This document shows positions 4,525-47,824 of a stretch of DNA of 64,000 bases, in pieces. The notes under the pieces are model-generated. The model had not been told where the DNA came from. It searched no databases and worked only from the letters and a program-made list of their open reading frames with translations. The stretch covers positions 186,001 to 250,000 of the forward strand of contig RSEE01000093.1 in the NCBI GenBank assembly GCA_003971905.1, in the 5' to 3' direction. The position numbers and the translations under genes were made by a program. This stretch comes from Moniliella sp. 'wahieum'. Its lineage: Eukaryota. Within the stretch, counting starts at the first letter, position 1. The number at the start of each line of letters is the position of its first letter.

Positions 4525-4548
4525 TAACGCGTAACGCGTAACGCGTAA
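4525..4548. repeat. (TAACGCG)3 7-bp palindrome-core microrepeat upstream of the IML2-like gene
   Basis: taacgcgtaacgcgtaacgcgtaa read directly, followed by degenerate copies to ~4575. Confidence 0.9.
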
Positions 4549-8094: not shown

Positions 8095-8147
8095 ACGAGA
8101 CGAGACGAGACGAGACGAGACGAAACGAAACGAGACGAAACGAGACG
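8095..8147. repeat. (GAGAC/GAAAC)n pentanucleotide microsatellite
   Basis: About 10 tandem copies read directly, just past the RhoGEF stop. Confidence 0.9.
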
Positions 8148-15702: not shown

Positions 15703-17449
15703 CTACATGATTGTGCACTTGCACTTGCCAGCGCCGATGGTGTCTTCCGTCTTGGGCGCAGCCTTGGCAGCAGGCTTAGCAGCAGGTGTGGGAGCAGGAT
15801 TGGGAGCAGGATCCAGAGCAGGCGCTGGGGGCATATGGGAAATGGGCTCCGGATTCTGACGACGCGGGGTTACTTGAACACGACTCGTTGTTGTGGGGGA
15901 GGAGGGTTGGGCAGAGAGGGTGCGGGAGCCGAGGCTGACCCAGCGATTGGCGATGTCCGCGACGTGAGTGGGGATTGGACGGCCCAAGGCATGGTACCAG
16001 CCTGGGAAGTCTGGTCGGCAGTACCAGGGAGACTGGCTGGGGAAGCGGGGCTGTGCGTTGACACCGGCTCGATGGGTTGAGCGGCTACGCGGTGGGATAT
16101 GGCCTTCTTGAGGGGCTGAAGAGAAACCAATTGGCTCGCGTTAATACACAAAAGCGTGGTACAAGTAGAGGAAGAAGCACGCAAAAGTAACATACCAATG
16201 GAGGAAGGTGGATTGTCATCACGACGCAAGTCAGAAGCAGAAACTTGGTCATGGTTGGTGGGCACAGAGTGGACGGGGTGGTTAACACTGGGGCGGGGTT
16301 CGCGTTCAATTCTGGTTTCATCCGCAGGAGGGGTTGGCAGGCTTATCTCCTTGAGATCGTAGGGTTGCCGTGGATGTCCCACTTGTCAACCAAGCCGCAC
16401 GAGGCCAAAGCGGCGGCCATGTCAAAGTTGGGATCCTCGCGGGATGCCTTCAATTGGCGTTGTGCCTCATCTCCTCCGGCAGCAGCTGCAGCCGCCAAAA
16501 GTTCACGTGCACGAGAGAGACGAGCGCGGCGAGCGACAGTGGGAATTTCGTTAACAGCCGGCTTCGATGGCGTGATGCTAGGCGCAAATGACGGGGGGAT
16601 TCGGACCGCTTAATGCCTCCCAATGGGCCAAACTCTTCAAGCTCAACAGAGCTGATCTCCCCTCGGTGAAACTGGGACAAACGTTGGCGCTTGATTGAAG
16701 CCATACGGGCCCGAGAACGAGAAAACTGGTATCCTCATCGGCTTGAAACGTGCCAATCGAGCTTACTGAGAGGTTTTGGGCTCTCTGGGCGTGCTAGCCA
16801 TGGGGAACGTTGCACTGGATTGGGTTCGGTTATGCGACTCCTTCCCAGGTGTTTCCGCCCTGGACCGTTCCCAGAAGCGGCGGGTGAAGTTTCCCCCGTC
16901 TGCGCCCAGACAACAACGGGGTAGAGTTGGCGCGCCCATTGTTGGACCGTAGGGATCCACTACGATTCATGCTGCGTGATGGCCGACGAGGACGTGAATC
17001 CCAAGTAATGTAACGGTCACTCACGTCGGGAGCAGGTCCACCCAAAGGGCCGAACTCGGACAGCTCATCAGCACTCAGCTGAGCCGCTTGTGATTTAAGC
17101 CGGCGCCTGCCCAGTGGAGTGGAGACATCAGCACTCAAATCGCCAGCCGAAGCGGCTTCTTTCGAGAGGGGGTTGCAACGGATATGTCAGCGTTGGGGAC
17201 GGAAGCATCATGCGTTGAAGCATTCCCTTGAGTTTGGCCAAGGGTGGTGGGCCATGCGGGGGGGGGGCGAGCGCGATGGGGAGAGGGGCTGGGAGTGTCA
17301 TATTGAATGCGACGGTCAAAGGGGGGGGTTCTGTTGGTCTGGGAACGGCGGCGACTGCGAACGGGGTGGAGCGACTCGAGTGGGACCCAGTCGGATGCTT
17401 GCGGATCTGGCAGGCCAGTGCCAGCGCCGCTCGCCGCGACGGTGGCCAT
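15703..17449 (-). CDS. Hypothetical low-complexity protein with repeated EL(S/E)EFGPLGG motif and C-terminal CAAX (CTIM)
   Basis: Chain of overlapping minus-strand ORFs (17449-17135, 17138-16830, 16704-16450, 16382-15870, 15987-15703) apparently joined by frameshifts; ends '..GAGKCKCTIM*'. Confidence 0.55.
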
Positions 17450-17869
17450 GACGGCAGACGGAGCAGAGAAGGCAGGGGCGAGGAAAGAGGCGGAAGGGTG
17501 GGGGGAGCGGAGGGGAGAACGGGCGGCAGTGCAAGCGACCGAGTGTCACTGGGGCGGGCGAAACGGGGGGGCGATGGTGGTGGCGATGGCAGTGGCGGTG
17601 GGGGTGGTGGCCGCCGTCACATCTCGGGCGGCAATGGGCCCAGAGCCGCCCACAATTTCACACAGGCGAAGTTCGGGCCTTTGCAGGCATTTGGCCTTGG
17701 AATTGAGGCTGCCTTATTTAATTAGTCAGTCCCACTGGCATGGCAGTTCTCCAATTTCAAACGGCTGTCCAGCTCATCACATCGCATGTGACGCAGTGAC
17801 GCAGTGACGCCGTTCCAGCCACTTTACTGCCCCTCGCGTTTTCACGCCACCATCTCAGCTTCCCGCGCC

Positions 17870-20968: not shown

Positions 20969-21202
20969 GGTGGTGGTGGTGGAGACAAAGAAGTAGATAG
21001 CGGGAACAACAGAGCAGGCCGCCCGCGCTCGCTCCGTCCGCAGGAATCCAGTCCACGCTCCCAGCTCGGCTGTGGTAGAAAGACAGCCAACGTCCACATT
21101 ACGTTACCAGACCCCCGATTTGCACACCATACATCATGCATCCCACATCACCATGGGCACGGTCTCTGAGCTGTCACGTGTGATGTGGGGAATGTGATCA
21201 GG

Positions 21203-21226
21203 TGACATGTGACATGTGACATGTGA
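21203..21226. repeat. (TGACATG)3 7-bp palindrome-core microrepeat in the divergent Rid1-like/RPL29 promoter
   Basis: tgacatgtgacatgtgacatgtga read directly. Confidence 0.9.
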
Positions 21227-21646: not shown

Positions 21647-22485
21647 GCCATAGGCTCGTTGGTCTGTGCGGTGTTGCAACACCGCTTTTCTAAAAAGCGC
21701 GTCGTGCCCAGGATGGCCTGCTTCCACTGGACCTTTGTAATCGGCCCGGGCATTGGTCACTCACGCTTCCTTTGCTCTCTGGCTGATGTGCTTCAGTGAA
21801 CCTGCAACTTGTCTCGATGCTTGTCCATGACCTTGTGTACTGTTTGTTCCCATATGATTATGCATCCTTGTGCACAAGCCCGATTGCGGAACTTCATATG
21901 TGACCTTGCAAAGGGAATCAGCTACTTCCTTTTGAGTGCACACGCGACAATCCCACCATTAGTTTTGCTAGCAGCTACCCACCGTAGTGTTCGTTCCGAA
22001 GGCGCACCACTGATGAAAGTGATATCACTTTACCATACTCTCTAGTGCTCCCTCGGGTTACCGCCCGCTACCGCTCGCAGGCAGATCGATGAGCTGCAGC
22101 CGCAAGGTTACGGTCTTCAGCAAGCTGAGCTGAAGTGTCTCAAGGCCAAGTCCGAAGCCTCGTGGCCAGATCGGGGAGAGCAAGAGAACAACTGAGAATG
22201 GCAGAGGAAGAGTCCAGTTCCTCCGACCTGAGCATGGCATGCTTAGCGCTTACAAGCCGTACCGCTATAAACAACTGGACTTTGCCATATGGACAGTTTC
22301 CCATCTCATCCACCTGCTCTCATGGAGTATAAAACCAGGCTGGTTACATTCAAGCCAATGCAGCAGATATGAGAAAGAGCACGAAAAGGGTTGACGGCCA
22401 TCGATGTGGTTCCGTACAGAAATGGTCGTAAGTGCGCTCAACAGAGTGTAGGTGTAGAGGAAGCGTGCGAAAATTCAATCGACAT

Positions 22486-23007
22486 TTAAGCCGCTTCTTC
22501 TTGGGTCCGCCAAGAGGAGCACCGATATCCTTGCCACGCAGCTTGACCCCGAGGGCACGCTCGAGCTTGGCCAGAATCTGCGGATTGGGGACGGCGCGAC
22601 CCGACTCGTAGTCACCAATCACCTGAGGTTTTTCATTGATCTTGGTGCCAAGCTCCTTTTGGTTGAGGCCCTTGGCTTGGCGGGCCTGGCCAATGGCTTT
22701 GCCCACGCTAGGCGCCACTTTGGGAGGCGCCGTCACTTCGTTCTCGCGGTCCAGTTTTAGCGAGACGGGCATGGTCTACACCTTCGTGGCCCTTGTTGTG
22801 ACCAGCCGCGGTCTTGCGGTTGTGTCCGTGATCGCGCCAGCGGCGCGGCCACGGTCGTAGGCATTCTGGGATGCGGTGGTGCCGCTGCCCGAGGGGCGGG
22901 TCTTGTAGCCGATTTTGACGTTGGTCTTGGTCTGGGGGAGGGGAAGGAAGGTCAGGGCCAAATCCGGGAGCAGGGGAAGGGGAGAACAACGTACCCCAGG
23001 CAGACAT
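22486..23007 (-). CDS. MBF1: Multiprotein bridging factor 1
   Basis: ATG 23007, intron ~22994-22931, '[65 protein letters not shown]'. Frameshifts near 22770-22820; stop position uncertain. Confidence 0.92.
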
Positions 23008-23424: not shown

Positions 23425-25041
23425 ATGTCGCTTCTGTGTGCCATCTCGGGCGAGCCGGCGCTCGAGCCCGTCGTGTCCGTCAAGAGCGGCCGCGTGTACG
23501 AGCAGCGTCTCATCCGCAAGTATCTGGCCGAGCACGACAGCCAGGACCCCATCGACGGAACTGTCCTCGACCGCCCGCGACTTGGTCGCGGTCGCCACGG
23601 GCGCTCGGACCCGCACGGCGCAGCCCCGCCACGCAACGCCCACTTGACGTCCGTCCCGTCCCTGCTGACCTCGATGCAGAGCGAGTACGATGCGTTGCTC
23701 TCGAAATGGCAACGCTCAAGCGGCAGTACGACACGACGCGGCAAGAACTCGCTGCCGCTCTGTACTCGAACGACGCTGCGTCGCGCGTGATTGCACGCGT
23801 CCTGCGCGAGCGCGACGAAGCACGCGATGCCTTGGCCTCAATCGGAAGTGCCCTTCCTACTCATCTACCTCGAACACTGCCGACGCCGCCTCTGCAGAAG
23901 ATGCGGACATGCCAGATGCTGCCCGCTGTCGAAGCAGGTCTGCCTACTGAGCTGGTTGACACGGTCAACTCGCTTGCGGCTCAGCTCACCTCGGCCCGCA
24001 CGGGGAGGAGCAAGCGTAAGGCGCCTTCTGCCTATGGTGGTTGGCAACCTATACGGCCGCCAAAGGCGCTGCATTAGCCTTGCAATCGTCGACGACAATC
24101 GCACACCCCGCTCCAGTGGCTGTCACCTACCCACCCTATGCCTTGGCTTCTGCCGAACCCGGGGCCGTGGACCTCGTATCGACGGAAGGAACTGAACTTG
24201 GGCGTCTATCTCTTCCCGATACGGCCGGTGTGTCGGCACTGGCACTGGCGCTGCCGGCCCAGCCCACTCTAGGCCAGATTGCAGAGCTGCCACCTTTTAC
24301 TCTCGCTGCATCGGCCGATGGTACTTCGGTACATGTGGTAGCATTGCGCGACACGATCAAAGTGACGGCCACCATCTCCTGGCGGCGCTGGGTGGGGCCC
24401 AGCACACTCCACCTGTTGCCTTGGCGGTGCACCCGTCTCATGCGTTTTTCGCAGTCGGGCGGGCGACGCGGTGGCGCTCTTTGTTCCCTCGGGAGGTGAG
24501 CCTGTTCTGCTTGTCCGTGTCCAAGAAGGGGAGCAGATCACCGCAGCTGCTTTCCATCCCGACGGCCAGCTCCTCGTCACGGGCACAGCGAGCGGCAAAA
24601 TTGTAGTGTGGGACGTCAAGACTGGAGCACAAATGGCGGTGTTTGAGCCGACTGGCGCGGCCGAGGCGCAAGCCGGGCATGCGGTTGTGCCTGGCGGTCT
24701 TGCCTTTAGCGAAAATGGCTACACACTGGCTTCAATTGCCCAGGGAAGTTTGGCAGCTGTGATTTGGGACCTACGCAAGCTGGCGCCGGTGACGGCCTTG
24801 ACTTTGCGGTGGCCCCCACGGCCTTGGCGTTTGACCCCAATGCCCAAATGCTCGCCCTGGCGGCACCGGGTGAAGTGACACTGTACGCTACCAAGGGATG
24901 GAAGCCCCTCCTCACCTCGCCCCTCGAACCTGAGGCCACGCCACGGCTGTGGGCTGGGACCAAGCCACCGCGCACTTGTCCATCATCCAGTCCCGCACCG
25001 ATGATGCGCTCTTGTCGGTCTTTGCCCCACCCAAGGCGTAA
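23425..25041 (+). CDS. PRP19: Pre-mRNA processing factor 19 (U-box, coiled coil, WD40)
   Basis: U-box 'CAISGEPALEPVVSVKSGRVYEQRLIRKY', Prp19 segment 'TRQELAAALYSNDAASRVIARVLRERDEARDAL', WD40 'AFHPDGQLLVTG..WDVK', 'FSENGYTLAS..WDLRK'. Many frameshifts. Confidence 0.92.
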
Positions 25042-26386: not shown

Positions 26387-27379
26387 GTTACGAATCCCAG
26401 AGGCAAGGAGACGAGGAGAAAGACGCCCAGCCGAAGAGTGACATGGACGCTACGCCGGTGGTGGCAGCACATCACCAAAGCACGTAACCTCCATGTTGGA
26501 AGCCCCAATTGCAATGAGCCACTTTCAAATTGCAATTGGCACGGTCCGTGCGCTGAAGACGTCCAACTGATGACGTTCGAGGCTTATTGCGCCTGTGAGG
26601 CTTATTTTTGGTGCTTGATCGGTGAGACCTGGATCCCTGCCTGTTGAGGCTTGATGGTCTTCGAGGGTGATGCAATCGCACTCGTGGTGGTGGTGGTCTA
26701 ATCCAGCCAACAACACCTACAAGAGGGACATCAAACTCTTCAGGTAACCGTTAGTCGCCACCAGGAGTTATATTAGGCTGCGGAACGAGAGAGACAGAAG
26801 CGAGGAAGAAGCGAGGAAAAAAAAATGGAACTCCTGCAGTACTATATATACTTAGGCCTGTGTGAGGAGGGACTGGAGGGACCTTGGTCAAACACATATG
26901 AACCACCCGGTGGTTCAACCCCCCCCCACCCCCAAGCCCAGGGACCAAAGAAAACCCGTAGCCCAAAAACGCGGTAAAAGAAAGGACCAAACGAGAAGAA
27001 AGGGGAGAGCCAAATGGAAGTGCTGATGAGAGAGATGTATAGAAAGGAGTAGTTGGGAAGACCAACCGCGGTTTGGTGAATCAATCAATCAGAGAGATAA
27101 TCAATTAAAGGAGAGTATGGGGAACCACTAGTTCGCCGTGATGTGACACCACGCATCGGTCTCACGGATCTTACTGAGTCTGCCGAGCTTCTCGGCAAGA
27201 ACATTGACTTTGCAGTGTCGTCGAACTGTCACGACGTCATATATTTATGAAGAGGAAGAGACAAGGAGGAGGCTGGGAGGCGGTGAAGTGTGGAAGCTCT
27301 TCAAAAGGGATATATGATTCCACTGCTCATTAACTCGGCCAGCCTTGTTCAAAATGCTGAGGGTTCAACAGAATGAGCA

Positions 27380-28720
27380 CAACGATTGCTCTACAAACAT
27401 ATTGTAGCAGGCATCCGTAATAAGGTATGCCACCTTTGCAGCTCAGGTAGATATGGCTTGCACCCACGTGGCAACCAAGCTCTCGATCCCGACAATCGAG
27501 AGGGGGTACGCGCGTACCAAATTATACGGAAAAGAAGCACGATAGAAAGCATATTGGGAAGTTGGAAAAGCAGGTGAGGACAGGCACAAGTATATAAGGA
27601 TAGAGAAAGAGATAGTGCCAATGCCGTCATCGGCTTATTGTGGACGACCTGCCTATATAGAAAAGGCATGATAAATGTATGGGAAAAGTTAATGCTTTCT
27701 TGTGGGCTTGAAGACGGATGGTCGCGTTTTCCAAAATCATGTTGCGCATCCGGGAGCATGGTTCATAGTGTGCAGTCCCCGCGCAGGCCTATTCACTAGA
27801 TGTGGAAGCGACGGGAGCGTAGTTGCCCCCCCCCCCCAGAAACATATATCAAGAGGATTATAAGGACGCGATGATATATAGAAGCTCTGATGTATCAACA
27901 CGGCAAACAAAGGGCAGAAAATCATGCCCAGACCCTTATAAAAGGTGGTGTTGCCGTCGAAGAACAGCGTAAAAACCTCGACTGCTGGTGGTCTATTAGT
28001 TGGCAGTACTGCAATCGATCAGGGTAGGTAAGTCTCCACTGCTAGGCCAACCCTCCCATGCACCCCTCATATAAGCTCCTATCTGCGTCTCGATGAAAGG
28101 AACCGCCGCTGGGATACGTAGCAGTCTCGCGGAAGAATAACACTCCCGGAGACGCGCCCTAGTGTGCAGACCACGTCACCCCAATGAAGCTCCCGAAGCA
28201 AACGATGTGGGTGTGCCACAAGCCCATGACTCGTGCCCAGCATCGAAAACCTTCTTCGTATGTTCTCCCGTCATACGAGAACTCATTCTTACTATTCTCC
28301 ACAGCAGCGATCACCACCAAACGGAAGAGCTTGGGACCCATATGGAAAAATCGAACAACAAGTTGGCCCGGTGTGCCAATCGGAGATGCTGCACAACAAA
28401 CTGTTGTGAGCTCGTTCTAGTCCGAGACCCAAAGGCCAAGTGAATCAGCGCCGATGAGACTGTGGATATCTTCACCTGGGGTGTGGTATGACCCTATCTT
28501 TTAAAGACGAACTGAGAAGACGCCAAAGTCAGCATGTCAGCAGCACGACTAAGCAAATTCATGGACATAACGGTGGAGTTAAGCATAAATCATTGTGAGA
28601 TGTGGAACTATTTGTGGTCCAGACCAGAGATGATGTAATGTGGGCGGTAGGTCCCAATTCGACCATCGCAGAATTGCCCCCGACAGAGACCATTGTAGGG
28701 TGCCTAAGACGTTATTAACC
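27380..28720 (-). pseudogene. Decayed, apparently intron-containing gene for a possible multi-pass membrane protein
   Basis: Minus-strand branch/acceptor signals (CTGAC..CAG at ~28512; TTAAC..TAG at ~27653) and hydrophobic fragments 'GLGMIFCPLFAVLIH', 'HYLFLYPYILV', 'VVRFFHMGPKLFRLVVIAAV' broken by stops and frameshifts. Confidence 0.2.
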
Positions 28721-30959
28721 CAAGGCCAAAAGGGTTGTCCTGGTTTAAACTGGTCCATCTCATGAAGGTTGACAGTAAATTAACATGGGACACATATCGG
28801 CCAAAATGTTGGGATCCGTGCCATCATTACAATGACGGTGGCGTTCATACAATACCGTGTAGGTTTGTGGAGTTCAACAACGTCCGCACTAAACACCCGT
28901 CGAATGGCATATGATCTCATTGATCTGACTCGAACGGAGACCTCCGTCGATCAAACGTCGCTAGTCATCGACTGCCTTTTGCACACCTGTGGATGTGCAT
29001 GTGGGAGGTTGTCGGGACAGACGAAGAATTTTTCAACCTAAATTTCTCTCCGTAAATACCCTCTTCTAGAACCTCCACAACAGCTGGTACGCCCATTTCA
29101 GTACCTCACCGCTTCTCTGTCACGTCCAGGAGACGGTCCTCAGTAGGCAGCCAGGAACGAGTCTAATAGTCGCATGGACATATAAGCATAGAAGCATGGA
29201 ACGGATGAGAGAAATGAAGCTGCCGTTCAAATGTTTCCACAGCAGCAGGAGGCGTTACCATGCGACGTGGGTTTAGGACGGGATCTTTCAGTAGCTCGAG
29301 TATAGATATTGTAAGACGTTTCGACGGAAGATTGTTTCGTGGATGAAAGAGAAAGCCAATATGAATAGAGCAAAAGCCCGCCAAGACCAGATAGAAGATG
29401 CCATGTGCAATTCGTTGAGTTTTAACGCGCGAAGACAGACACTTGAGTGGACCAATCGCCGTGTGCCCGCTTCTCGGTGTCGTCACAGCCACAATCTTCT
29501 CCTCGAGGGATGAGAGTCGGTTAGAGTTAATAAGACTATGTATACGTGTTGATTGTTGGAATCACTACTGACTCTCGCATGTGGTGGCCACACCGAAATC
29601 GTCTTCCCATGAGGAACAAATGGTAAGAGATGAGTTTGGTATTGGCTGAGCCGTTCTTTGACCAGCAGTTGAGAAGCATGATGTTCGAAAATTCAGTGGG
29701 AAAAAGGAGACGGATTATGGTCTTCGACCCAGTCGCCACCAGCAGGGGCGAGGTAACTCCTATAATCTATGGGCCTGAAAAGAGGCATTGAAGGGACCTT
29801 GATGAAACGCACGGGAGCCACCCGATGATTTAACGTGTTACTCTACCTCCAACTGAGTGGGGAGGAGGAAACATTAAGGGTTCTTATCCGGACAATATTA
29901 TCTTCACCTTGAGACTTATAACCGATAAATCAACTTATAGTACATGTGCCCAAACGATTGGGGCGATCTTCCCTCCACTTAGTTGTTCAGGGGTGGCTAT
30001 ATCTGACGGCAACAGAAGCAAATGTGCTACCCGGGATTGTCTCTTCATGGGGGGATATCCCTCACCGTGAGTACGAGGATAAATTCGACGAAACAGTTAC
30101 TCATTCGAAGACGCGGTGTAAAGAAAGGGATGGGTCCAGCCGGAGACCGAGAGGCCCTTGGACACACGTCGTATGTGTAGGCACAAGTTCGGGCATGCGC
30201 ACAGAAAAAGTTTGATTGAAAGTCTCTCAAATCATCTTATGCCGGAGTTGCTTTTCATCATCGTTTCTGTTTGTGGTGGGGCCACAGAGGCGGTACATTT
30301 CCGGATGGTGCAGCGGTGAAGACAAGCACGACTATTGCGGGCCTGATGGAACCCAAACCTTTCCCCGCCCTCATAGTTATAAAAGGACAGGAAACGAGTT
30401 GGTTTGGGGGGATGGTGTATAGAACTCTCGTTACACGTGTAGTATAGAGGGTCACCGGTCACCCCCGACGCGAGAGACTCTCTGAGATGGCGGAAACCCA
30501 CCTCTTCTGTCCTCCATTCTTTCGGTACCTCTCTTCACATGCGACTCCTACATGACGTGCATATGATGGGTGCAGTTTTGACAATGCGATGGGGAGCTTG
30601 TGTTCGAAGAGCGGCCGCACATAGTATAGAGATGTGTGGCACGAGAACGAGGCATATAAGAATGTGTCGGGTAAGAGGTACTAATAAACCGTCCTCTTGT
30701 TGGACGCAATTTCAAGGTTTGTGATAGAGGGCGTGACTGTGAGTGTTTTATAGGGGTGTTCGTACGGGTGTTCGCACAGCTTTAGTGGGAGATTTGCTGC
30801 GGTCTTCGCCGTCAACAACAGGCCTCTCTTCTCTTCTCATCATGCTGTTTCCCCACCCCGTGACAGAGAGTCCCGTTACCACCCTCTCCCGGTAATATCG
30901 GTAATGCTAACCGAGCATTGATGGCCACGATGCATGAGCCGATTGGAAGCTTTGAGACC

Positions 30960-32810
30960 CTCACATGTGAGTGACATGTGACACACGTCTATATTCCAAC
31001 GCCGCCGCCTCTTCCTCCATTCGCGGTGGCGCGCTATATACGCCCGGGGACGTACCAATTATCATCTTTCCCTCTGCCGCACAGATTTGGCAGTGCCATT
31101 CCACTTCGACAGGACTTGGATATATATATATGCCGAAGACGCGACTACCATCGCAATTCCCATTTGTGAGCCCATTTCTGTCAGCAGTAGCAGGAAGCAG
31201 GGTATGTGTGGCTGCGAGATGCTCGTTGAGCGACACTGAACGTTGAATGTTGAAGAACGTACGTTGAACACGTTAAACGTTGAGTGCATTGACTTCTTGA
31301 GCTTAAGCGCCGCGGAAATTGCCGTTTAACGTGTTTAACGCGCTACACGATCGGCTTCGATCAGGCGACGTTGTGCAAGCGAGATACTGTGCATTTGTGG
31401 ATGCATTCTCACAGAGGCTGTGAGAATGGAACGAGTAATGCTAGTGATGAGCGCGCTTTTAGCTGAAGCGACTCTACATCGCTCAGCGTTGACGCTCACC
31501 TCCTGAGCTCTCAAGTTTTACTCCTGAGTAGTGCTCAAGCCCTCACGCGTCACGTACTGAGGACTGAGGCTCAGTACGTTCAACGTTCAACGTTCAGTAT
31601 CAGTCCACAGGACGAGACAAAACTATACCGTCGCGAGTCGCAGGCCACCTGTCACATACATGTCACGCCGAGCTTCTTGTATTCCTTCGCACATATCTCT
31701 CAGAGCGGCTGCTGTGCGGTATTCGGCTAGGTTTACTTACTTTTGCATGCACACGTTTGCAGCTAATAGATGTTTCATCCCGTCTGAGGTCGATGATCGA
31801 TGCGGCCTGAGGCCTGAGGCCATGCATGGAAGCGGTTGTGTTTGCGTCTGATGCGTGTGCAAAGGCAAGTGTGTGTGTGGACGGAAATAATACAACGACA
31901 ACAGTGTTGCTTTTATCGAACTTCTTTGGTTGACGTCTTATTGGTGGCATACTATATTGTTAGTACCCTCGCATCGTCATGCATGCATCATGATCCAGGG
32001 GGAAGAATGGCTCTTGAGCAGCTTGAGTGGGCGTCCCTGTCGTATTTGGAGTACTTGTCGTATTTCGCTTGTTCTTCCAGCACAGACGAAGCCGCCCTCT
32101 TGTTCCTCTCCCGTTGGCGTTCAACGAACAACGTTCAACGTGTTCAACACGTTGCACAAGCTTCAAACGAAGCGCTGTAGTTTCCTCGTGTACGTGTGAC
32201 TTCGTCATGTGACTTTGTGACTTTGTGAACATGATGCATCAGGACCACAGAGGCTGAGCCTCAGGCCCAGGCCACCGATTGCCGCCACATCGCGTCACTA
32301 GTCACTATAGTCACTAGAGTCACTAGCGTCAACCGGCGATGGAAAAACCAATGCCCGACTCAAGTACTCAAAGGACCTGCAGTGTGATGCATGTGATGGC
32401 ACGTGACATGTGACACTGGTATCTGACAGTCAGACGGGACGTTCGCGACGCGTCGCTAGTCACTAGTCACTGTGACGAGTATTTACCAGTTGAATTCTTA
32501 GTGACCGAGTGACCGGTGACCGGCCCTAGCCTGCTCCGCTTAGCTTGGCCTAGCCTGGGGACCGGCTTACCGGTTACCGGTTACCAACAACGCGGTACGT
32601 ACACTCTGTTTGGATCTAAGATCTCTGATCTCACCATGTCACACCTTCTCACACTCGTTTGCCAGTGGCGAAAGCACATGTGCCTGGGTGCGACTATGGG
32701 CGCTGTCAAGCTTCAAGCTTCAAGCTTCAAGGCGCGCTTCAAGCTTCAAGGTAGTGTCACCATGTCACCCATTCGCGCTAAGCTTAATCATTCATCAGCC
32801 TAGGGCCTAA
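30960..32810. repeat. Dense cluster of 7-bp-period TNA-[4-bp palindrome] microrepeats with many different cores
   Basis: acgttcaacgttcaacgttca (31576), ggcctgaggcctgaggcc (31804), tgatgcatca (32232), tcactagtca (32295), tgaccggtgaccgg (32510), ttaccggttaccggtta (32567), (tcaagct)3 (32706). Confidence 0.85.
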
Positions 32811-33396
32811 TCGATGACAGGACTGGCCCAGCACAACCACCATGGCGTGAGGCGTTGCCTAGCGGTGCACGCACTGGCGGTGCACTGTTACATGTTAGGG
32901 TTTTGCACACCATCCTTAATCCTTGCAGCCCACACTCATTTTCCTAGCCTGCACCCTGGCTGAGCACCGAATCTCAGATCGCAGCATTCGCTACATATGC
33001 AGGCACCCACTTCTTGCATTGTGAGTTGCATGTGAGTCCCGACTACCGAATGAGTACTTGGTGGCTGTGTATGAATGAGATCGACGGTGGCCCGCCACAG
33101 GACCCTGCGGCCTGGAGAGCGACTGCAGAAGCGGCGACACCGCAGGACAAAGGGCTATGTGATACATCGCACATAGGTACTAGGTGGTGGCGCTGGTGGC
33201 ACACCCGAATCTATGGAGCGTCTAAGCAGATTATTAGCAGAACATAGCATTGTAATGGGTTGCTGGTGTCCTCCTCAAAACTCTGGTGCGCGAGGCACCA
33301 TCACGTCAATCACGAAGATAAGTAAACGTTCGGGGTAGTAAAAGTTCGGGGGAGGCATCCCTGAGAAGCCAGAGGCGGGGGGCCAATCCGCATCGA

Positions 33397-35057
33397 TTAT
33401 TTCGTCAGCTCTTTGAGTTCGGGGAGGGTCTTGGTCATACCCGCCTTGTCCCCCAAAGCTACCGGTGAAGATTCCGGGTCGAGGAGGGCAGCAAGTGCGT
33501 CGTTGGGGTTGGTCGCTCTCCGCTGCGCGGCATAGCGGGTGAGCCTGGCAGACAACTGGGAGACGCAGGTATTGATGCTGGTCGACGCCCGGGAGCTTGA
33601 TCGGTCAAGCAGTAAAAGGCCGTGGCTCAAGACGCGGTTGGCCAATGAGGGGTCCGGGTCATAGAACTGCTCGGTCGGGTGGGTACTTGGCTAGGGTCGA
33701 CCCAATAGCCCGAGGTGACCACCGAAATCGCGTCGGCCGACAGCGCCGTGTGCCACATAACTGCCACAAGAGGCAGAGCAAGCGCCCATGCAGCGTGCAT
33801 ATCAAACGTGCGATACAGCGGCGGTCGGTCCACCGCCCAGTCGAGGCTAGTGCCCGCGAGAACCAGGAGCAATGCAACTCGCAGCCGGTGCAAGATCGCC
33901 CGTCTTCCCGCAGAGGCAGTAACACCACTACTCGCCACTTCATCAACGTCGTTTTGAAAAAGAACGCCACCCATTACCATGGGTGTGGATCCCGACCACC
34001 AATGAGGCCATAGCGTCAGGAAGAACCAGACCCCCCAGACGGCGGGGAAGAGCACCTTGTTGACAGAGACGAAAAAGGGGGCACGGAGTAAAGTGCAAAC
34101 CATACCGAATGCCTCAATACCCAGCACGGTATACACAACCTTAGTCCCAAGCTTGAAGCGCTGGAAGCTCTGAAGACATAGCAGGGTGACGGGAAAGGTG
34201 GGAATTCTTGCCAGGTGGGCTCCACCGAGCCAGGCGAGCCAAGCCCTGGAACAATGTCGCAACCAGGGCGACGTGCAGCCCAGCTGCCATTGCAAGATCA
34301 CTGCGCGGCGTATGGCGAACACTCCCAATCACAGCCCCAAACCCTGCAATCACCCAAGCGAAGGTGGTGTAGGTGTAGAGGTTAGCGAGAGGGAAGGTGC
34401 CGGGCAGAGCGGGAGGTGAAGGAGTGTTGGCGCTGGGACGGAAACGCAGTAGCGCAATGATATGGACGATAAGGGTGAGTGTCATCCCCAGTGCTGCGAG
34501 GGGCTCCTCCATGCCACCCACTCGGACAAAGACCCAATGACCATTGTACTTGACCATCTCCTTCAATATGGGCGGCATGGCATCCAGGGCGGTCTTGGCC
34601 CTCGCATTCGCTTCGGCCGAGATGGCGGGGAGACTAGCGTTGGGCAAGGCGGCCTGGGCTTGGAGCAGGGCATTTTGGCGAATGGCCTGAGTACGTTGGA
34701 TGGCATCGTTAGTGAGGGTGTGGGTGCAGCGATAGGCGGTGTCCGCAAGGCAGTCCCACAGCGTCCAGCGCATGCTCCACGGTTGGTTGCGAAGCCACCC
34801 GTCACCACGGCCCGTGATACCATCATCCACGCCATCAGGGCCGCAGACGTCGTCATAGCGGGATTGGATGCAGAGGCTGAACTCGGTCGTGTCGGCGCCA
34901 TTGCTGGCAAAGGAATGGTGGTCGACGGAGTCGGCTTCCGAGATGGTGTAGAGTGTCGGTGGTGGCGGGCCAAGGGTTGGGTAGGAGCGACAGTGGCCAT
35001 CGTGCTCATGGCCAATGTGGCCACGGTGACGAAAAACAGTGGGCAGCGCCGACGCAT
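33397..35057 (-). CDS. Per1/PGAP3-like GPI-remodelling family protein (CREST superfamily), divergent
   Basis: Signal-peptide-like start, 'ASNGAD..FSLCI', 'RWTLWDCLAD..YRCTH', 'VKYNGHWVFVRVGGMEEP', 'DRPPLYRTFDMHAAW' matching Per1 architecture; several frameshifts. Confidence 0.78.
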
Positions 35058-36939
35058 GACACCAATAGTTGTGAGAGAGGGGTGGGTGTTGTTGGTGGAA
35101 GAGGGGGAAGGTCGATGCTGGGGGGCAAGCTTTTTGTGTGAGTTCAAAGCTCGCTTGGATGGAGGTGCGCAATATAAAGCTGGCGAGGGCTGGGCGTTTG
35201 CTTGCGCCTATCATTGACTTGAAGCTGAAGGCAGGCAAAGGCAGCAGGAGGTGATCGTCACGCGTCACACACCACACATGCATGTGCATGAGCGCTGTCT
35301 CAGTACTGAGTAGTACGTAGTTGCGCAGTGCACCGGCGCATCAGAGCACCAGCGCCAGCCGCCAGCCCTGTACTTACAAGCCAGTCAAGTACATAGCATT
35401 GATTGGGACTTCGCGCACAGATGATCGATGATCGATGTCGATGACAAGCCTCCAGGGGGCGCTGAAGCTGAAGCGCTGAAGGTGCTGAAGCTTGACGCTC
35501 TGTAGTGCAGAAACTGTCGCAAGCCTCACTGAGGAGGCCCTGAGGCTTGAGAGCTTGAGGCCTGGGCCTGACGTCTTTCGGGTGTGGGAACATGTGAATA
35601 TTGACTATTGAATCGCCGACAAGAACCGAGCACTCGGACTGAGTACTGAGTGACTCTAGTGAGGCTAGTGGCTGCCTCATTCGGTCGCAAACACACCCCG
35701 ACGGCACACACTCAGACAGGATTTCACCGTTTAAGACATTTAACGTTTTAAGTTTTAAGACGCTACGCGTTCGTAGCTTGAAGCTTGGCTGGCGTCCTTG
35801 TGCGACGATCGGCCTAGACCTTTTCCTTTTTACCGGTCGACAGATGCTCGCACTCAGCTGCCTATCGACATCGAGTATCGGTTACTCTCCTCGCCGTTTG
35901 TTTCCACATCCGTTTATCTCCCCTAATTGATTATATTGCTCACGAAGTGTTAGGATTTGAGCGCCTCCGGCCCTCAGGCCCTCATCAGACCCAGGCATCA
36001 GGCCCTTCGGCCCAGGCCTCGGGGTCTCTGGGCCCGAGTCGGCTTGGATTTTAACGACTGTAATGCCGATCAGATCGATCATCTCTTACTGTGACCATAT
36101 CATTGGCAGAGCTTAAGGCCGTGTGGGACAAAGAAGCGCTGCACCTAAACCAACTTCCTCATCCGGCGTGTGTTGCTTGTTGGGGCCAAACTCCATTTAG
36201 GAAACACAGAAGAGCCATCACATGCACAGTAGGTCAGGACCCTCTGGCGCCCGCTATCCGTTTTTCCAAACCCAACTAGATAGCTCGCGTGTGGATACGA
36301 ATGGGCGTGGCAGATGACATGATCCGAGCGGTGAACTCGGTGAACCGGGGAACGGGGTGCCGGTGGACATCCATCCCCCCCATGAGACTCTTATTTGGTA
36401 AGTCTCTTTCCTACAACCTAACACCTTGCTGTACCACCCCCTCTTGGTGATTAGTATTATCCTCGCGTCGTCATAACTAAAGGGGGAATCAAGGTTTTTT
36501 GACTGCATCCCTGGTATTGGGCGTTCTTGTCGCATTCTGCTTGTTAAAAATCGGAAAAAACACCCGGGGTGTGTGTGATGCACATACAGCGTCTAGACCT
36601 TCGGCCTTATAGGCCTTAGGCCTTAGGAGAGTATCGGTAATATGATTACGACACCATCTCGTCCCCATCTCCACTAAGGACTGTATGGCCGGGTTCTAGC
36701 CTCCCGCAATGGACGCACCCCGCCCAACATCAAAATCCACCCCTCTTTCGGCAATACCAATGCTTCGGGCATTGTCAACAACCGCGCGCCCTAACATCAG
36801 AAGCTGCCAGTTGCTCCGCCTGCCACCGCTCTGATCCGTCGTCGTCCACGATGCACCATAACAGATACACCACATTACACTACAGCCGCCCTCATACCCG
36901 CCCCCGTCGCGTACGTATTTTTGCTATTACTTTCGCACT

Positions 36940-39910
36940 CCACGTCTCCCTCTGTGGAGAAGAACGCGCCGCCGATTCAGTCCAATCAAGCCCGGCCTTC
37001 TCCATATGCTGCACCCCAGATGCATTCGTCTTCCTCTTCTTTTCTTACTCTTCTGTCTCTCTGCCGTCAGGCACAGTAAACGTTCCAACATCAGGGATAA
37101 GGCATGTCCACGGCTGTCCAAAACTCTTTGCACTACGCAGCGCACGTGTGCGCGAGATACCATCTGCTTTCGAGAGTATTAAAAGAGTTCCCCAACAAAA
37201 GACACGTGCGTACAACGAAACATTGGTCTTCAATACTTCATGGCTTGCCAAATACGGCCATCGCTTGGCCAGTGCTCTCGGGGGAGTGTAACATGTAACG
37301 TTTGATCCTCCATAATGGCGCACCGCTTATATTACTCCGCAGCCTGGCGCCTTAGTACATCCTACCACTTACCAAAAAAGGAAACCCCGACCCCACCCAT
37401 CGAAGATCAGAATGGCTCACACAATGTGCGAAGATCTATCCGACGGGTCTCGCTAAGCCCTACCCGTCCAAAAGGCTCGCAATGCATCTACCCTGGGTCA
37501 AACCCTCGACACACCACTCCTGCGGTCCATCGTCTTGGATGAACCCGAGCAGGTTTGCCGTAACCCTAACTCTTTGAGGTTATTTAGCGCCACCCCCACA
37601 AATCCCTCATGATGCTGCGGTTTCATTTTGGGGCGAGAACAGTTATGGCCAGCGGCAACGCAATCGGCCTACACTTCCCCGGAAATGGCGATCATTCTTA
37701 TGCCCGGCATGGAGGATGATGCCGAGACCCAGGGCCTGCTTGGTGTCCCTGCGTTGCGCTTTCTGCAGAAAAAAGATGCTATAGCTAGGACATATATCGT
37801 CTGCATGCGTCAATAACAACATATACTAAAACTCTCACTCTACATACCCATCCTCTGGTCAGACTCACGCCGTGCTATAGGGGTGTGGTCATGATGCATC
37901 ATGGGGCGGGACCCCAGACGGAGCCCGACCCCAGGATTTAATGGGGGTGAAATCCCTTAGAAGTGGAATCAGAGTTACCTACTGTTGTATATGTCCGGCT
38001 TCACAGTTCCTGGTTGAGTGCTGAGCCGAGCCGGTGTAAAGGCGAAGGAGAGACCCTCTATAGTTTGGGTGGCTGTGCCTGTGTACAAATACCGCAGTCC
38101 AGACTCTCTGAGGTAGGAGCAGCGTACGTACGTCGCCAGACTAGTTAAAGGGGTCAAGGAACTCCGGGGTAACGGGGGTACCTGGGGCGTGTTACCACAC
38201 TCGACGCGCTGTATAATGGAGGCGGAGAATCAGACACGGAGTCCTAATGAAGGGCACGCGCTACCGAGAGAAGAGTAACCGCAGTTTGCAGAGTGGTCGA
38301 CGTATTAAGTCGTAACGAGCGCGCCATCCATTGACGAACGCTCTGTGAGCTTTACTTCATTCGAAGAGGCTGTTGTGGCCAGTTCGACGGTCCTACAACC
38401 GCCCGCACCGCCATTGTCGCGCTCTCACCTGAGGCCTATAGTCTCGTCAGCAAGGAGTTCACCCCCTCCGTCTGTGAGGCAAGTTCAAAAAGCAGCTGTC
38501 AGAGGACACGCCTTTTACCATTTGAGACACCAATTCCCAGGTGAAGACGAAGAGTCTCAAGTAGAGGAGGGGGAGAGAGGAAACTCCTGAAAGCAGGCGC
38601 CGCGCCTTCTCACTTTCATTCAAAGACACTATCATTTTAAGGAAAGTTACTTTCTGGTGCTGCTGCCAATGATGATGTGTTGGATATGGCAGAGTTTGGA
38701 ATGCCTGTTGCGCCCTCCCTTTCCGAGCAGGAGAGTCCATCGAACCTTTGCAGCGGTACACAGAGAGAAAATGCGGCAGCAGAGCGCACCCGGTGACGCA
38801 GGGAAGCAACCGAATACTGCCGAACCCTGAACCCGTGTTAGCCCGGGGGGTCTTCCTCCGCCACATGTAACCGCGACCCATCATCCCCTGTCATATAGTT
38901 TGGCGGATCTCGCACCCATTTCCAATTTCTTCGTCCCGAGCGTCTCGATCTTTCCCTGTTTCTTCCACTTCGCACCATGCCCTCTGTTATTGCTTTCTCC
39001 ACGAACGATTGACTCTGTCTCCTCCCCTTAGCCCTAACCATGACACTCCCCGCCCCCTCGAACGCCTATTACTGACAACTAGCCCATCATCTTCATCAAT
39101 GGGCCAGCGGGAATGGGCAAGTCGTTTCAACATAATACTCCTTTTTCCCACATCAGGGGTACACTGGGCCTCAGTGCCACCGCGGTTGCTTCTTCCGGCA
39201 TCGCTTCCCTCTTACTCTCGACGGCGGTGCCCCCCACTACCCGCTCTAGTATATACCTTTAAAATCCCCATCAATTGCCTCAGCACCAGCTCTTCCTTTT
39301 TGTCAAACACGACAGAAACGTTTCGTGCCCTCCATCACACCTCCTTCTCAACGGTTATAAGCCGGCAGATGTCCAGGACAACAATGCTGCTGTTCCCCTC
39401 GAGTTTCTTAATAGGCTCACCCCTGCAGGTTTTCCTCTTCACAAGCTACCCTTAAAGTTATTGGTATGTCGGCTACGCTCCTCCGGAACCTCAATGAGGC
39501 CGCAGGTTTGATCAATGGCACCCATCTCTCATGGCCATATGGCCCGGTTATATTCCATCGGGGCCGTCATCCTCAATGCGGGCAAAAGACCCCAGACAGC
39601 ACACCTTTTCCCCATTATCCCCCTCCGCATCTCTTTAACAAAAGCGACATTCGCTTTAGCCGCAGGCAGTTTCCGATTACCCCAGCCTTTTCCATGACCA
39701 TCAACAAGCCCCAGAGTCAGACCCTGCGCCATATACGTGTTGACGCCTCCTTACCCCTACTTTGCACACATGGCCAGCTTTTTTATGTCGCTCTTTTTGT
39801 CTAGCATCTCTCTTTCCGCCACAGGCTCAAAGATCTCCTCCCGCGTTCCAGGACCACTTGCAACACTACCGATCGCCAGGTCTTCGAATACGGCGGCGAG
39901 GTGGGGTGCC
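36940..39910 (+). mobile_element. Degenerate Helitron (Rep/PIF1-helicase) relic with internal deletions and insertions
   Basis: N-terminal 'EERAADSVQSSPAFSICC..GTVNVP' and 'TRAYNETLVF'; Walker A 'IFINGPAGMGKSF' (~39090); 'VPLEFLNRLTPAGFPLHKL', 'LLRNLNEAAGLINGTHL', 'RRQFPITPAFSMTINKPQSQTL', 'HGQLFYVAL'. Confidence 0.85.
38889..39045 (+). mobile_element. Solo LTR-like element, copy 1, nested in the Helitron relic
   Basis: TGTCA...TGACA termini. Shares cccatttccaatttcttcgtc, ttccctgtttcttccacttcgcaccatg and ccacgaacgatt with the copy at 47635-47824. Confidence 0.7.
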
Positions 39911-43029: not shown

Positions 43030-43150
43030 TCAAGCTTCAAGCTGCAAGTACTCCGCTATTTGCTCAGCACGCGTGCTGGACTGAGTACTGAACGTTCAAC
43101 TTGAACACGCTCTTGTGACGCGTGACGCGTGAACGTTGAACGAACGTGAC
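43030..43150. repeat. Mixed-core 7-bp palindrome microrepeats in the BUD16/NAPE-PLD divergent promoter
   Basis: tca-agct-tca (43030), tga-gtac-tga-acgt-tca (43082), tga-cgcg-tga-cgcg-tga-acgt-tga (43116). Confidence 0.85.
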
Positions 43151-44974: not shown

Positions 44975-47634
44975 ATGCGTGGATGAGTCGGAGTGTTGGG
45001 CCGAAGGCTGTCCAGGCCTTTGCCCTTGCCCCAACCCTTCTCTTTTCATAGCACAACCCCCCCTTTGCACAGCAAAAACAACAGCTCACGTCCTCTTGAG
45101 CACTGAGTACGTGAAGATGGAGAGCGTGTCGCGTACATTGAGAGAGGAGGGATCCCCTGCCCCCTGCCGCCTCTCGACCTTTACCGCCCACGACTTCCGT
45201 CTCCTAATTCCCTCGACCTTGCAAAGCCAGGCCGAGCAAACGCCCCTGTTAATCCCATTCAGTCAAGATCTGTCGCACCTGTTGACCCGCATGACCGACG
45301 AGCTTCACAAAAGGAATCGTGGCAGCTCATGATTAAGCTAGAACGCATTTCTACGAATCGAAGCAGATATAGATAGGTACATTATAGGAGTTGAGGGGGG
45401 CGCTGCGCAACAAGTGTCCATTCGCGTGTGGGTAGCAGGCTGCGGGCGGATTCAGGGGGTATATACGGATCCGGACACGCCGGGAAGACGTCCCTGCGTC
45501 AACAAAGGCCGTATTACTAGGGAACTGTGGAATTTGGTACCCTACTGTTAATGCGAGCGGAGTATTCGTAGCTTTCCAACGCTCTTTCGAGCCAACTCGA
45601 TTCTAACCCTCTCAGAGAGCGACAACTGCTACTGCTAATGATGTAAAAGGGGAGAGCCATGCAGGGCGACTAGCACCGTCAAGAAATCGATGTATGCCAG
45701 GGTACAATACCAGAACCAGAACGGCATCGTGATAGCATCGCCCAAGTACGAAACCATTGTCACACGGAAAGGAAAGCATCATCATCCTCATCTTCATCAT
45801 CCAAAACGAAGATAAGAAAAGCTTCGCAACAGAGAAACAAAACAACGATTCACGATACTGTACAAAGGGGAATCCGTAATCCGTATAGCCGGTAACAGCG
45901 TTGTATATCGATCTTCAATGCACCTCCTCTCCCATGGGAATAATGAGGAAAACAAGAGAAGAAGAGCAACAACGGTATCTACCTACCCCGCAACCGACGG
46001 TCTCCGCGTGGGTGTGCGAGCGAGCACCTCGTAGAAGAATAGCCGTCCAGAACCGCAGAAGTCTCAGAAAGACTAGCGCTCAGCCTGGGCGGAGAGTTTA
46101 AGCGCTGAGAGCATATATGCCAGCTATTCCTCTATATACGATCCCAACCCGCGGGCCAAAAGCAATGGTGGCAACCGGATCGAATGCCAAAACCTATATA
46201 AAAGGCCAATCCCGTCCAATCATTAGTCCGTATCTATAGCCTCACATGTCACATGAACAACAAGTTGTTCCAGAAACGTTCTGGTTCGTTCTCTAATATC
46301 AGTACAATAGTCACCATGATATGCTTATAGTGTTCAACGTTCAACGTTTAACCTCCCATTGCTCGTTATTGAGTGTAATGTTTAGAATCGACATCTGCCG
46401 TTAACTGTGGTATAATATGGTAGAGTATAGTCCGTGTTCAGACGGTGAGTACTATGGATGCGCATTCGCTAGCACATTTCGGATGTCTGTCCGAAAGGCG
46501 CATCAGTGATGCTCAACTTTTTAATGTGCTAGTATACTATACGACACACCCCTTCCCGGGCCAGCACCACGCCCTGAAGAAGGGGCCAGGGGTGATGATA
46601 CTAGTATCATTGCGGGGGGACTTCTGTTGTTGACTGCCAGTATGTTGCGCCTATCGATACCGGAACTGGTACTACTGCTTTTGAGAAACCCAACAATTCA
46701 TGTTGATGACTTGTTTATGTGGAACTTCTCCGTGTTCTATAGGACACAGCGCGGAACAAAAACAGTATATTGATCTAACCTCTGGGCCTTAGGCTTAGTC
46801 CTTATTTTCAGTATATCGGGGCATTGTTGGTCATCTGTTGTTTGAGAATCTCTCCCCCCCCTCCACGGTACTCGTCCTCATCCGTCAGTATAAGAACTGC
46901 CCAAGGGAGAAGATAAAAGATCGGTGGGGAAATACTTCGCAAGCTGTCTTGCTTCTCCACGCTCTGCGGTGACACGCGGTTTCGGTTACGGGATGGGTTT
47001 TACAGTGGAGAGACGGTCGTCTATAAAGAACAGGGAGGGTCGGAGATATCTTGACTGTATATAGGTGTGCGTGACATGTGACATGAGATCCTCGAACGCA
47101 CATGATCTCTTCCGCTTGCTGTTGATTAGATAGATAGGGCACGTGCCGGTTGATGAAGTGATATTATACACAGATTGTTATGAGACGAAGAGATATCCAT
47201 AGAGATCAGTAGGAGATCACAGCAAAGGATTATTTGGGTCGTATTTCACTTTTGCTTGACGGGTGCAGGGGGGAGAAAAGAGGGCTAATTTCTCACACAG
47301 TATGCAATCAAGAAAAGATAGAATGAAGAACAGAGGCATGTGTGTGGAAACACTGAAAGAGGGGAGATATACAGAGAGCGAGGTGTAGACAACATGTGCG
47401 TGCCAACAGCGAGAAGAGTGACCAAGAGATCTGCCATTACTTTGACCCAACCCAACCGAGTGTTTCAACAACCAACAGACCGGACAAACAGATGGGATTC
47501 TGATTCGACGCACCCCCCGGTCTCTCCTATTCCATCACCGTGCTAATCGGGGTACCATATAGATTGTACAATTCCAGTGGAAACAGAGCAGAGAGTGATT
47601 CGGATCTCTCCCGTGAGTGAGAGCAAAGAAAGCC

Positions 47635-47824
47635 TGTCATAGTCAGGGCTAAGGCGAGGAAGGTCAGAGTCGAGAGACTAGGTCAAGGGATGTAGCAATC
47701 GTTCGTGGAGGGGAAGAAGCAAGAATAGAGTACATGGTGCGAAGTGGAAGAAACAGGGAAGAAGCGAAACGTACGTGCTGACGAAGAAATTGGAAATGGG
47801 AGCCAGACCAGCGAAACTATGACA
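47635..47824 (-). mobile_element. Solo LTR-like element, copy 2 (inverted)
   Basis: Perfect 9-bp terminal inverted repeat tgtcatagt...actatgaca; flanks aagcc/aaccc (4/5 match, probable TSD). Reverse complement aligns with 38889-39045. Confidence 0.75.

Follow-up and report, generated by a model that had tools for sequence, protein, structure and literature searches.

A seven-base grammar of T-N-A triplets and four-base palindromes in intergenic DNA of Moniliella sp. 'wahieum'

The stretch of Moniliella sp. 'wahieum' DNA analysed here (contig RSEE01000093.1 of assembly GCA_003971905.1, positions 186,001 to 250,000 of the forward strand; hereafter the window) contains numerous short sites in which T-N-A triplets flank a four-base palindromic core (P4), so that the sequence repeats itself at a distance, or lag, of seven bases. 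All conclusions below are based on this one 64-kb window of an error-rich assembly. Positions are those of the window.

Heptamer arrays in the window

The segment 30960-32810 carries sites of many kinds. Two adjacent single-core sites, TCA-CATG-TGA and TGA-CATG-TGA (30961-30981), are followed by a decayed run punctuated by TGA and TAA, with an ACGT core of the GAACGTT type and lag-9 variants (31225-31340), and by the single site TCA-CGCG-TCA (31543-31552), in which half of the core is repeated in the right flank and the left flank is unrelated. Then come (ACGTTCA)x3.0, with the unit AACGTT plus C (31576-31596), (GGCCTGA)x2.6, with the unit AGGCCT plus G (31804-31821), a degenerate CGTTCAA run with the lag-9 variant GTTCAAC-gt-GTTCAAC (32118-32148), and TGA-TGCA-TCA (32232-32241), one of the few sites with complementary middle bases. 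A GTCACTA run with core CTAG (32292-32331) includes lag-9 units with the cores CTATAG, CTAGAG and CTAGCG, and is followed by the single site TGA-CATG-TGA (32404-32413), by (GTCACTA)x2.9, again with core CTAG (32452-32471), and by two arrays with core CCGG that differ in the middle base: (GTGACCG)x3 with G (32500-32523) and (ACCGGTT)x3.4 with T (32561-32585). The longest array of the window, (TCAAGCT)x6.7 with core AGCT and one interruption (32706-32750), and the site TAA-TCGA-TGA (32808-32817) complete the series.

Elsewhere in the window, single cores are repeated in (CGTAACG)x4.6 (core CGCG, middle base A; 4523-4561), (ATGTGAC)x4.9 (core CATG; 21192-21226), (GATGATC)x3.7 (core TCGA; 35420-35444), (TAGGCCT)x2.6, which has a neighbour at lag 9 (core GGCC, middle base T; 36594-36627), (TACTGAG)x3.3 (core GTAC; 61840-61862) and (GCCTGAG)x3.0 (core GGCC; 61921-61941), while TGA-GCGC-TGA (62189-62198) is a single site. 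Different cores are chained through a common TGA at 43082-43139 (GTAC-ACGT and CGCG-CGCG-ACGT) and at 60894-60920, where TGA-CTAG-TGA-CTAG-TGA-GATC-TGA ends in a unit that reads as a TGAGA|tc|TGAGA event on the terminal TGA of the array.

Every array listed in a preliminary description of this DNA was recovered in place: ACGT at 31576, GGCC at 31804, TGCA at 32232, CTAG at 32295, CCGG at 32510 and 32567, and AGCT at 32706, as well as TCGA at 35422, CATG at 21203, CGCG at 4525 and 43116, GTAC at 61843, GATC at 60911 and GCGC at 62189. Where that description had seen at least seven cores between 30960 and 32810, nine were counted. Its period of seven was borne out by 47 perfect tandems of at least two copies, compared with seven at period 8 and five at period 9, and exact 6-mers recur 250 times at lag 7 versus 19-146 times at other lags across the window. 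The unit it had proposed, a hexameric palindrome plus one base, accounts for 33 of the 47 period-7 units (compared with 10.4% of all 7-mers), and the outer bases are A....T in 32 of these 33.

It had further suggested counting palindromic and non-palindromic cores within T.A-N4-T.A. When this count was made on the window, 94 of 213 cores were palindromic, versus 8.3, 8.5 and 14.4 expected from Markov models of order 1, 3 and 5, respectively; the 119 non-palindromic cores were near expectation. The same middle base stood on both sides in 80 of the 94 palindromic-core sites (2.2 expected), and when core lengths from 2 to 10 were compared, strong enrichment was found only at 4 (80 vs 2.2). Cores composed of A and T alone, reported earlier as unseen, are not absent (AATT 3, ATAT 2, TTAA 1, TATA 0) but are indeed rare, with 6 occurrences versus 20.3 expected from background (p = 8e-5). 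The pattern is real and far above chance.

The lag-7 signal is limited to kilobase-sized intergenic zones, at 4-7, 15, 21, 26, 31-33, 35, 43, 46, 49-51, 54-55 and 58-62 kb. Near-perfect arrays of at least three units cover 556 bases in total; the phenomenon is one of many small sites, not of long satellites. By an intergenic proxy covering 52% of the window, 61 of 67 arrays are intergenic, a soft figure because the proxy was partly drawn with the lag-7 map in view. Open reading frame (ORF) pieces supported by Pfam are overlapped only at their extreme 5' ends, at 6536 (WW ORF) and at 35258 and 35300 (Per1 ORF). Position 6536 is upstream of the first ATG of the WW ORF; 35258 lies just inside the Per1 ORF counted from its first ATG and 35300 upstream of it, both being upstream of the start of Per1 homology.

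Same-core sites tend to lie near one another, in both orientations (of 139 pairs, 20 are no more than 500 bp apart, vs 10.0 +/- 2.9 by permutation), e.g., ACGT at 31237, 31274, 31580 and 32118, and GGCC at 50092, 50316 and 51175. This suggests older arrays split by later insertions, or local re-use. The only inverted repeats found in the window are same-core arrays in opposite orientation, and the only dispersed repeats are the arrays themselves. Two AAGCTTC arrays 21.6 kb apart (32705-32737 and 54310-54342) are 94% identical over 33 bases, the identity taking in a few flanking bases (G before, AAGG.GCGC after); the pair could be due to chance or to a small duplicated segment.

We take the window to be nuclear DNA of a basidiomycete with few introns, from the subphylum Ustilaginomycotina. 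Its ORF pieces encode eukaryotic nuclear domains: TTC39/Iml2, WW, ribosomal L29, a DUF2921 E3 ligase, formin GBD, MBF1, Prp19, Per1, a metallo-beta-lactamase fold and C2H2 fingers. In a protein search, the best named relatives of the MBF1 gene piece (22353-22775, minus strand) were exclusively from Ustilaginomycotina, with Sympodiomycopsis at the top (88%; other assemblies reached 94%), followed by several Malassezia, Microstroma, Tilletiaria, Tilletia, Pseudozyma, Ceraceosorus and Ustilago. The Prp19 gene (23425-25038, plus strand) is intronless and shows about six frame changes relative to a 551-aa homolog. The Per1-like gene (33388-35085, minus strand), also intronless, has two to three frame changes relative to its homologs, and T-N-A sites lie on both sides of it (32.2-32.9 kb and 35.26-35.65 kb); a search of metagenome contigs with the Per1 protein gave no confirmed relative. 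Aligned to homologs, the two genes change frame about once per 270 bp. Since the aligned pieces abut without gaps, these changes are indels and not introns, and since both genes are essential, the assembly must contain many indel errors; it probably represents unpolished long-read data.

No tRNA gene or Rfam family was matched in scans of the window, and it shows no depletion of CpG or of the RIP type. Three stretches of lower G+C content (about 0.48-0.52) without long ORFs (27000-30900, 46000-49500 and 56000-58000) have almost no lag-7 signal, in contrast to the neighboring intergenic zones, which do; no Pfam match, dispersed repeat or CpG depletion was found in them. Among broken ORFs at 38.4-40.5 kb there is a weak match to the Pif1 helicase 2B domain (39415-39801, plus strand, E = 4e-5), which could come from a cellular Pif1 or from a Helitron remnant; neither a Rep nor another transposon domain was found near it. 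Tandems of periods 5, 6 and 12 at 6407-6487, 8094-8147, 15752-15822 and 17570-17610 (GGCGGA, GACGA x10.8, TTGGGAGCAGGA) lie in G+C-rich, ORF-dense DNA, do not follow the T-N-A grammar and look like coding low-complexity repeats.

Flank specificity and anatomy of the sites

When all 64 triplets were tried as flanks of a palindromic four-base core (XYZ-P4-XYZ), enrichment was confined to TGA (33 vs 0.8 expected), TCA (30 vs 1.0), TTA (10 vs 0.2) and TAA (7 vs 0.2). The constant part across sites is T-N-A alone, while the cores vary, at least 12 being used about evenly. The middle base is nearly free, being G or C in 53 of 67 arrays compared with 65% of background TNA sites. Palindromes of the form A....T take part in 80 of 322 cases, and those with other outer bases in 6 of 285, 4 of 278 and 3 of 195. 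A duplicated half unit accompanies 92 of 322 palindromes with outer A, versus 9 of 285 with C, 2 of 277 with G and 2 of 195 with T, so that even the shortest class depends on the A. Isolated odd palindromes centered on TNA are barely enriched (195 vs 167). At 33185, 41748, 58358 and 8838 there are direct repeats of 7-8 bases with a two-base reverse-complement spacer (gc or ct) that lack T-N-A, such as TGGTGGC gc TGGTGGC; these may be rare non-consensus events, or chance in triplet-periodic DNA.

True arrays are the minority, most sites being single events: 69 of 79 chains contain one core, five contain two and five contain three. The register of the repeats was determined from the start and stop of lag-7 identity in 82 arrays. 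With the unit written as y'x'-T-N-A-xy, where primes mark complementary bases, identity started 26 times at y', 11 at x', 16 at T, 15 at N, never at A, and seven times each at x and y; it ended nine times each at y' and x', once at T, six times at N, 15 at A, 13 at x and 29 at y. The natural unit is thus the odd palindrome y'x'-T-N-A-xy, and the hexamer A-xyy'x'-T is the junction between two units. The commonest combinations of start and end are asymmetric ((T,y) 9, (N,y) 9, (y',A) 8, (y',x) 7), and the full combination (y',y) occurs four times. At one end most copies lack half a unit, and the array stops there at the center of the palindrome. Typical sites have the form TNAxy|y'x'|TNAxy, the form NAxy|y'x'T|NAxy, or the mirror image of either; their direct repeat, 4-7 bases long, stops two bases past the A, and its two copies are linked by 1-3 bases that repeat the end of the left copy in reverse complement.

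Past the first mismatch, 19 of the 73 positions needed to fill out the half unit match (26%), compared with a lag-7 identity of 27.8% across the window. Decay of full duplications is ruled out as the origin of the short ends by this background-level value. As the flank beyond the boundary is unrelated, the first half of the palindrome was absent before the event. Read in this way, the sequence indicates that the event itself wrote the new half of the core, by copying in reverse complement the two or three bases after the A, and that the palindrome A-xy-y'x'-T is a junction made from the flank, neither a pre-existing site nor a piece of a mobile element. An unbiased search for 5-mers repeated at lag 7, with a spacer that is the reverse complement of their last two bases, returned 130 cases versus about 8 by a naive expectation, and T-N-A stood at the start of 97 of them.

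Pairs of TNA with the same N are most frequent at lag 7 (117 vs 24.8 +/- 5.3), followed by lag 9 (64 vs 25.8) and lag 8 (43 vs 23.5). In many lag-8 and lag-9 products the same four-base palindrome lies beside one TNA, and after it come one or two bases identical to the flank preceding the first TNA. Among lag-8 pairs (n = 53), a four-base palindrome lies at one end of the spacer in 19 rows, and the extra base is the one predicted from the flank in 13 of these 19. In the mixed chains at 43116-43139 and 60897-60920 the TNA is shared and the new core corresponds to the next two flank bases. Multi-unit and mixed-core arrays are the product of a later event on the TNA of an earlier scar.

A break-and-rejoin scheme and known systems

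The reading we prefer, in which our confidence is about even, is that the sites are scars of break-and-rejoin events with a 7-base overlap on TNA, filled by hairpin fold-back of the P-nucleotide type and caused by a transposon-type agent. Each unit would be the scar of one event that adds seven bases at a T-N-A site. Each strand would be cut two bases 3' of the A, the cuts being 7 bp apart and symmetric about N. Both duplex ends would then bear the 7-bp overlap pq-T-N-A-xy and would be sealed as hairpins. Opening of a hairpin d = 1-3 bases off its tip would leave a palindromic 3' overhang of 2d bases, and end joining would retain one overhang (+d bases) and trim the other (-d bases). As d bases are gained at one end and d lost at the other, the net gain would always be seven; less trimming would give +8 or +9 with the same junction. 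At a site that is already palindromic the two overhangs would be complementary and could anneal, which would favor the re-use of old scars and cores containing G or C. The agent could be a hairpin-forming cut-and-paste element with an nnTNAnn 7-bp target duplication, or a nuclease derived from one; the duplicated overlap would stem from insertion and the hairpins from excision, and the agent would act preferentially in intergenic DNA.

Several observations are consistent with this scheme. The depletion of all-A/T cores (6 vs 20.3) fits a step in which a four-base overhang has to pair. The equality of the middle base in 80 of 94 sites indicates a direct repeat and not a fold-back copy, which was rejected as a model since it requires complementary middle bases. 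Simulated on Markov sequence, the scheme gave 25 starts at y', 23 starts at T, 25 ends at y and 22 ends at A; from 90 simulated events of plain 7-bp duplication, about 7 arrays could be detected. By rough arithmetic of our own, some 100 events over about 1,700 intergenic TNA sites would give about 6 chance re-hits, versus about 15 implied by the data, so re-hitting of scars would need little preference. Two variants of the cut geometry were also rejected: a Transib-like 5-bp duplication with two P nucleotides, because its mirror product TNAxy-N'A-TNAxy is not enriched, and a topoisomerase II-like 4-bp stagger, because the target is not symmetric about a 4-bp center.

The hAT, Transib, MULE and RAG systems are described as forming hairpins on the flanks, which are opened by host enzymes and leave end-joining footprints (PMC5499845). 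The sites in the window resemble the footprints of hAT, Mutator-like and Transib elements and the P nucleotides of RAG in that both target copies are kept as a direct repeat, in that a few bases at the junction match the flank end in reverse complement and, under the scheme, in that the break is sealed by host end joining. They differ from hAT, MULE and Transib products in the 7-bp overlap, in the target nnTNAnn and in that no element is present in the window. Galileo, of the P superfamily, produces a 7-bp palindromic target duplication with the consensus GTANTAC, and transposon target motifs are palindromes, according to PMC4168063. Galileo and 1360 share with y'x'TNAxy a 7-bp odd palindrome about a free central base; the Galileo consensus, as given there, has A-N-T at the center and fixed outer positions, unlike the T-N-A and free outer positions found here. 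The insect elements are present as copies, and here there are only scars. Excision of the P type uses long staggered cuts and not flank hairpins.

Among other known systems, PIF/Harbinger and the IS5 group (IS1031-type) share the symmetric three-base target T-N-A, but their duplication is 3 bp compared with a 7-bp overlap here, and no such element lies in the window. A Tc1/mariner footprint (TA-CATG-TA) likewise has a target repeat on each side of a four-base palindrome; its core, however, comes from the element tips and is constant, whereas here it is copied from the flank and differs by site. Fill-in of staggered breaks, left by trapped topoisomerase II or by staggered Cas cuts, gives tandem duplications of a fixed length set by the stagger, but these are 1-4 bp long and have no inverted junction bases. 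Heptanucleotide microsatellites are also composed of head-to-tail 7-bp units, and some loci here have 3-6 units; unlike products of slippage, the sites described here have a constrained unit grammar, are mostly single events, and have half-unit ends and unrelated flanks.

A number of results weigh against the break-and-rejoin scheme. A TNA-centered 7-bp duplication with inverted ends had no candidate in the 64 kb, TNA-flanked inverted ends in the window numbered 9 compared with 14 in a reversed-sequence control, and none of the 186 ORF pieces of the window scanned with Pfam contained a transposase domain. The 7-bp overlap assumed by the scheme does not match the duplication lengths known for hairpin-type superfamilies (hAT 8, Mutator 9-11, Transib 5). 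The density is very high, about 80-100 recognisable events per about 1,700 intergenic TNA by our own arithmetic, and to our knowledge is far above that of transposon footprints. Fifteen arrays start at N, their left copy lacking the T, compared with 0.9 per replicate in the simulation, which yields such arrays only if half-sites with only the A are allowed. The lag-11 products predicted when both overhangs are kept number zero in the window. Moreover, two genes of this assembly show an indel roughly every 270 bp, which makes single-base details of the lag-8 products unsafe.

Alternative explanations and implications

Breaks could also be made outside mobile elements, by a host nuclease, topoisomerase or recombinase that cuts TNA-centered sites with a stagger, followed by fill-in and by end joining with polymerase turn-around. 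The window has no transposon, the scars are very dense and spread across all intergenic zones, and the target is symmetric about N, all of which suits a host enzyme. Staggered-break fill-in gives short duplications, e.g., 2-4 bp for trapped topoisomerase II. Fill-in alone, however, would leave plain duplications of any TNA-centered 7-mer, and these are not enriched: TNA is at the center of about 5 of 14 non-palindromic period-7 tandems, which is about chance (~0.36, our own rough estimate), and the plain duplication simulated above is detected far too seldom (about 7 arrays per 90 events). Besides, the balance between bases added and bases lost, which holds the lag at 7, has no ready cause unless the ends are hairpins. 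We consider this explanation unlikely.

A replication error driven by structure, in which quasi-palindromic heptamers form hairpins in flaps or nascent strands, duplicate and expand, would agree with units that are self-complementary except at N, with the depletion of weakly pairing all-A/T cores (6 vs 20.3) and with the local clustering of same-core sites (20 of 139 vs 10.0 +/- 2.9). Such an error needs a palindromic 7-mer to begin with, while the arrays are mostly half a unit short and their flanks are unrelated, so that the palindrome was made in the event; in addition, odd palindromes centered on TNA are barely enriched in isolation (195 vs 167). The strict requirement for T-N-A and for the A, as well as the exclusivity of period 7, would be left unexplained, and the 69 single events among 79 chains, together with perfect arrays that are all shorter than four units, are unlike growth by slippage. 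The probability of this origin appears to us similarly small. The preliminary claim that ordinary slippage cannot explain the arrays holds, as the features of a slippage microsatellite are missing: 33 of 47 units are a palindrome plus one base, 69 of 79 chains have a single core, and the ends fall at the palindrome center.

The footprint of a transposon duplicating 3 bp of TNA (PIF/Harbinger or IS5-like) and leaving two bases of each inverted end would produce period 7 and a palindromic core by simple addition (target duplication plus 2 + 2 bases), with the same middle base on both sides; TNA (TWA) is the target duplication of PIF/Harbinger and of some IS5-group elements. The ends would then fix the core, whatever the flank. 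What is seen is the use of at least 12 cores in about equal measure, and a flank that repeats half of the core (4 arrays in class (1,1), 14 in (1,3)+(3,1), 10 in (2,3)+(3,2) and 10 in (0,3)+(3,0)). TNA-TNA pairs at lag 3 are not clearly enriched (45 vs 33.4 +/- 6.8), and TNA-flanked inverted ends do not exceed the control (9 vs 14). This quite improbable explanation is already largely refuted.

The preliminary description had offered two readings, binding arrays of a dimeric factor and scars of a cut, fold-back and templated-repair process. The second is upheld by the half-unit ends, the unrelated flanks, the core half that is the reverse complement of the flank, and the same junction at lags 8 and 9. 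As for the first, cis-regulatory arrays read by a dimeric or multimeric factor at T-N-A with 7-bp spacing would be in keeping with the constant flanks and with the intergenic position of the sites, many of which are found at most a few hundred bases upstream of the start of a gene (4218-4561, 6536-6989, 21203, 23247 and 35258-35650). A protein would need neither a palindromic spacer of arbitrary sequence, nor the same unread middle base, nor half-unit ends; most sites (69 of 79 chains) have a single spacer, and degenerate copies at many stages of decay occur beside perfect ones. Binding arrays explain the location only, and we regard them as very improbable. A model in which stop codons are placed in three frames was rejected, since the palindrome and the mix of strands do not fit it.

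An artefact of sequencing or assembly from unpolished long reads, suggested by the approximately one frame change per 270 bp in Prp19 and Per1, is the least probable explanation, to be entertained only as a bare chance, given that the local flank serves as template for 12 or more different cores, that the sites show graded decay and avoid Pfam-supported gene pieces, and that 477 kb of other assemblies with the same seed array lack the grammar. Known consensus errors are indels and motif-linked substitutions, not flank-templated 7-base insertions.

The control just mentioned started from the perfect 24-base array of the window, (TCAAGCT)3TCA, used as a seed to search metagenome contigs. About 570 stretches from many environments contained it, of which 120 loci (477,106 bases) were sampled as a control and not as relatives. 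Besides the seed, 12 palindrome-plus-one heptamer tandems were found in the 477,106 control bases (two of them A....T) versus 27 in the 64-kb window, and the T-N-A grammar was found in none of the 120 loci; the grammar therefore belongs to this genome or lineage and not to any DNA bearing the seed. (TCAAGCT)3TCA is a recurrent simple repeat in its own right, and the metagenome stretches containing it lack companion cores.

No published description of the TNA-P4-TNA grammar, and no paper printing two of six unit heptamers, was found in the literature searched (listings, abstracts and passages). Because surveys of simple repeats usually go no further than 6-base units, they would overlook a heptamer grammar. 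A bolder reading, which we hold to be less likely than not, is that an undescribed agent, either a new nnTNAnn cut-and-paste element with hairpin excision or a host nuclease derived from one, keeps writing 7-base palindromic TNA scars into intergenic and promoter DNA. If so, it would act at a rate that leaves a scar at about one intergenic TNA in twenty, and scars of the excision type could form a visible share of fungal promoter DNA. The geometry of the break would be readable from sequence alone, with cuts two bases 3' of the A and 7 bp apart and opening 1-3 bases off the tip, and the signature, seven added bases at T-N-A with a fold-back junction, would be countable and could be followed directly, in the full genome, to the enzyme or element behind it. 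Such scarring would represent a lineage-specific mutational signature that makes palindromes, restriction-type sites and short repeats de novo; it would supply new palindromic sites as well as length polymorphisms of 7 bp, which might serve as strain markers in a group that includes many plant pathogens and skin yeasts.

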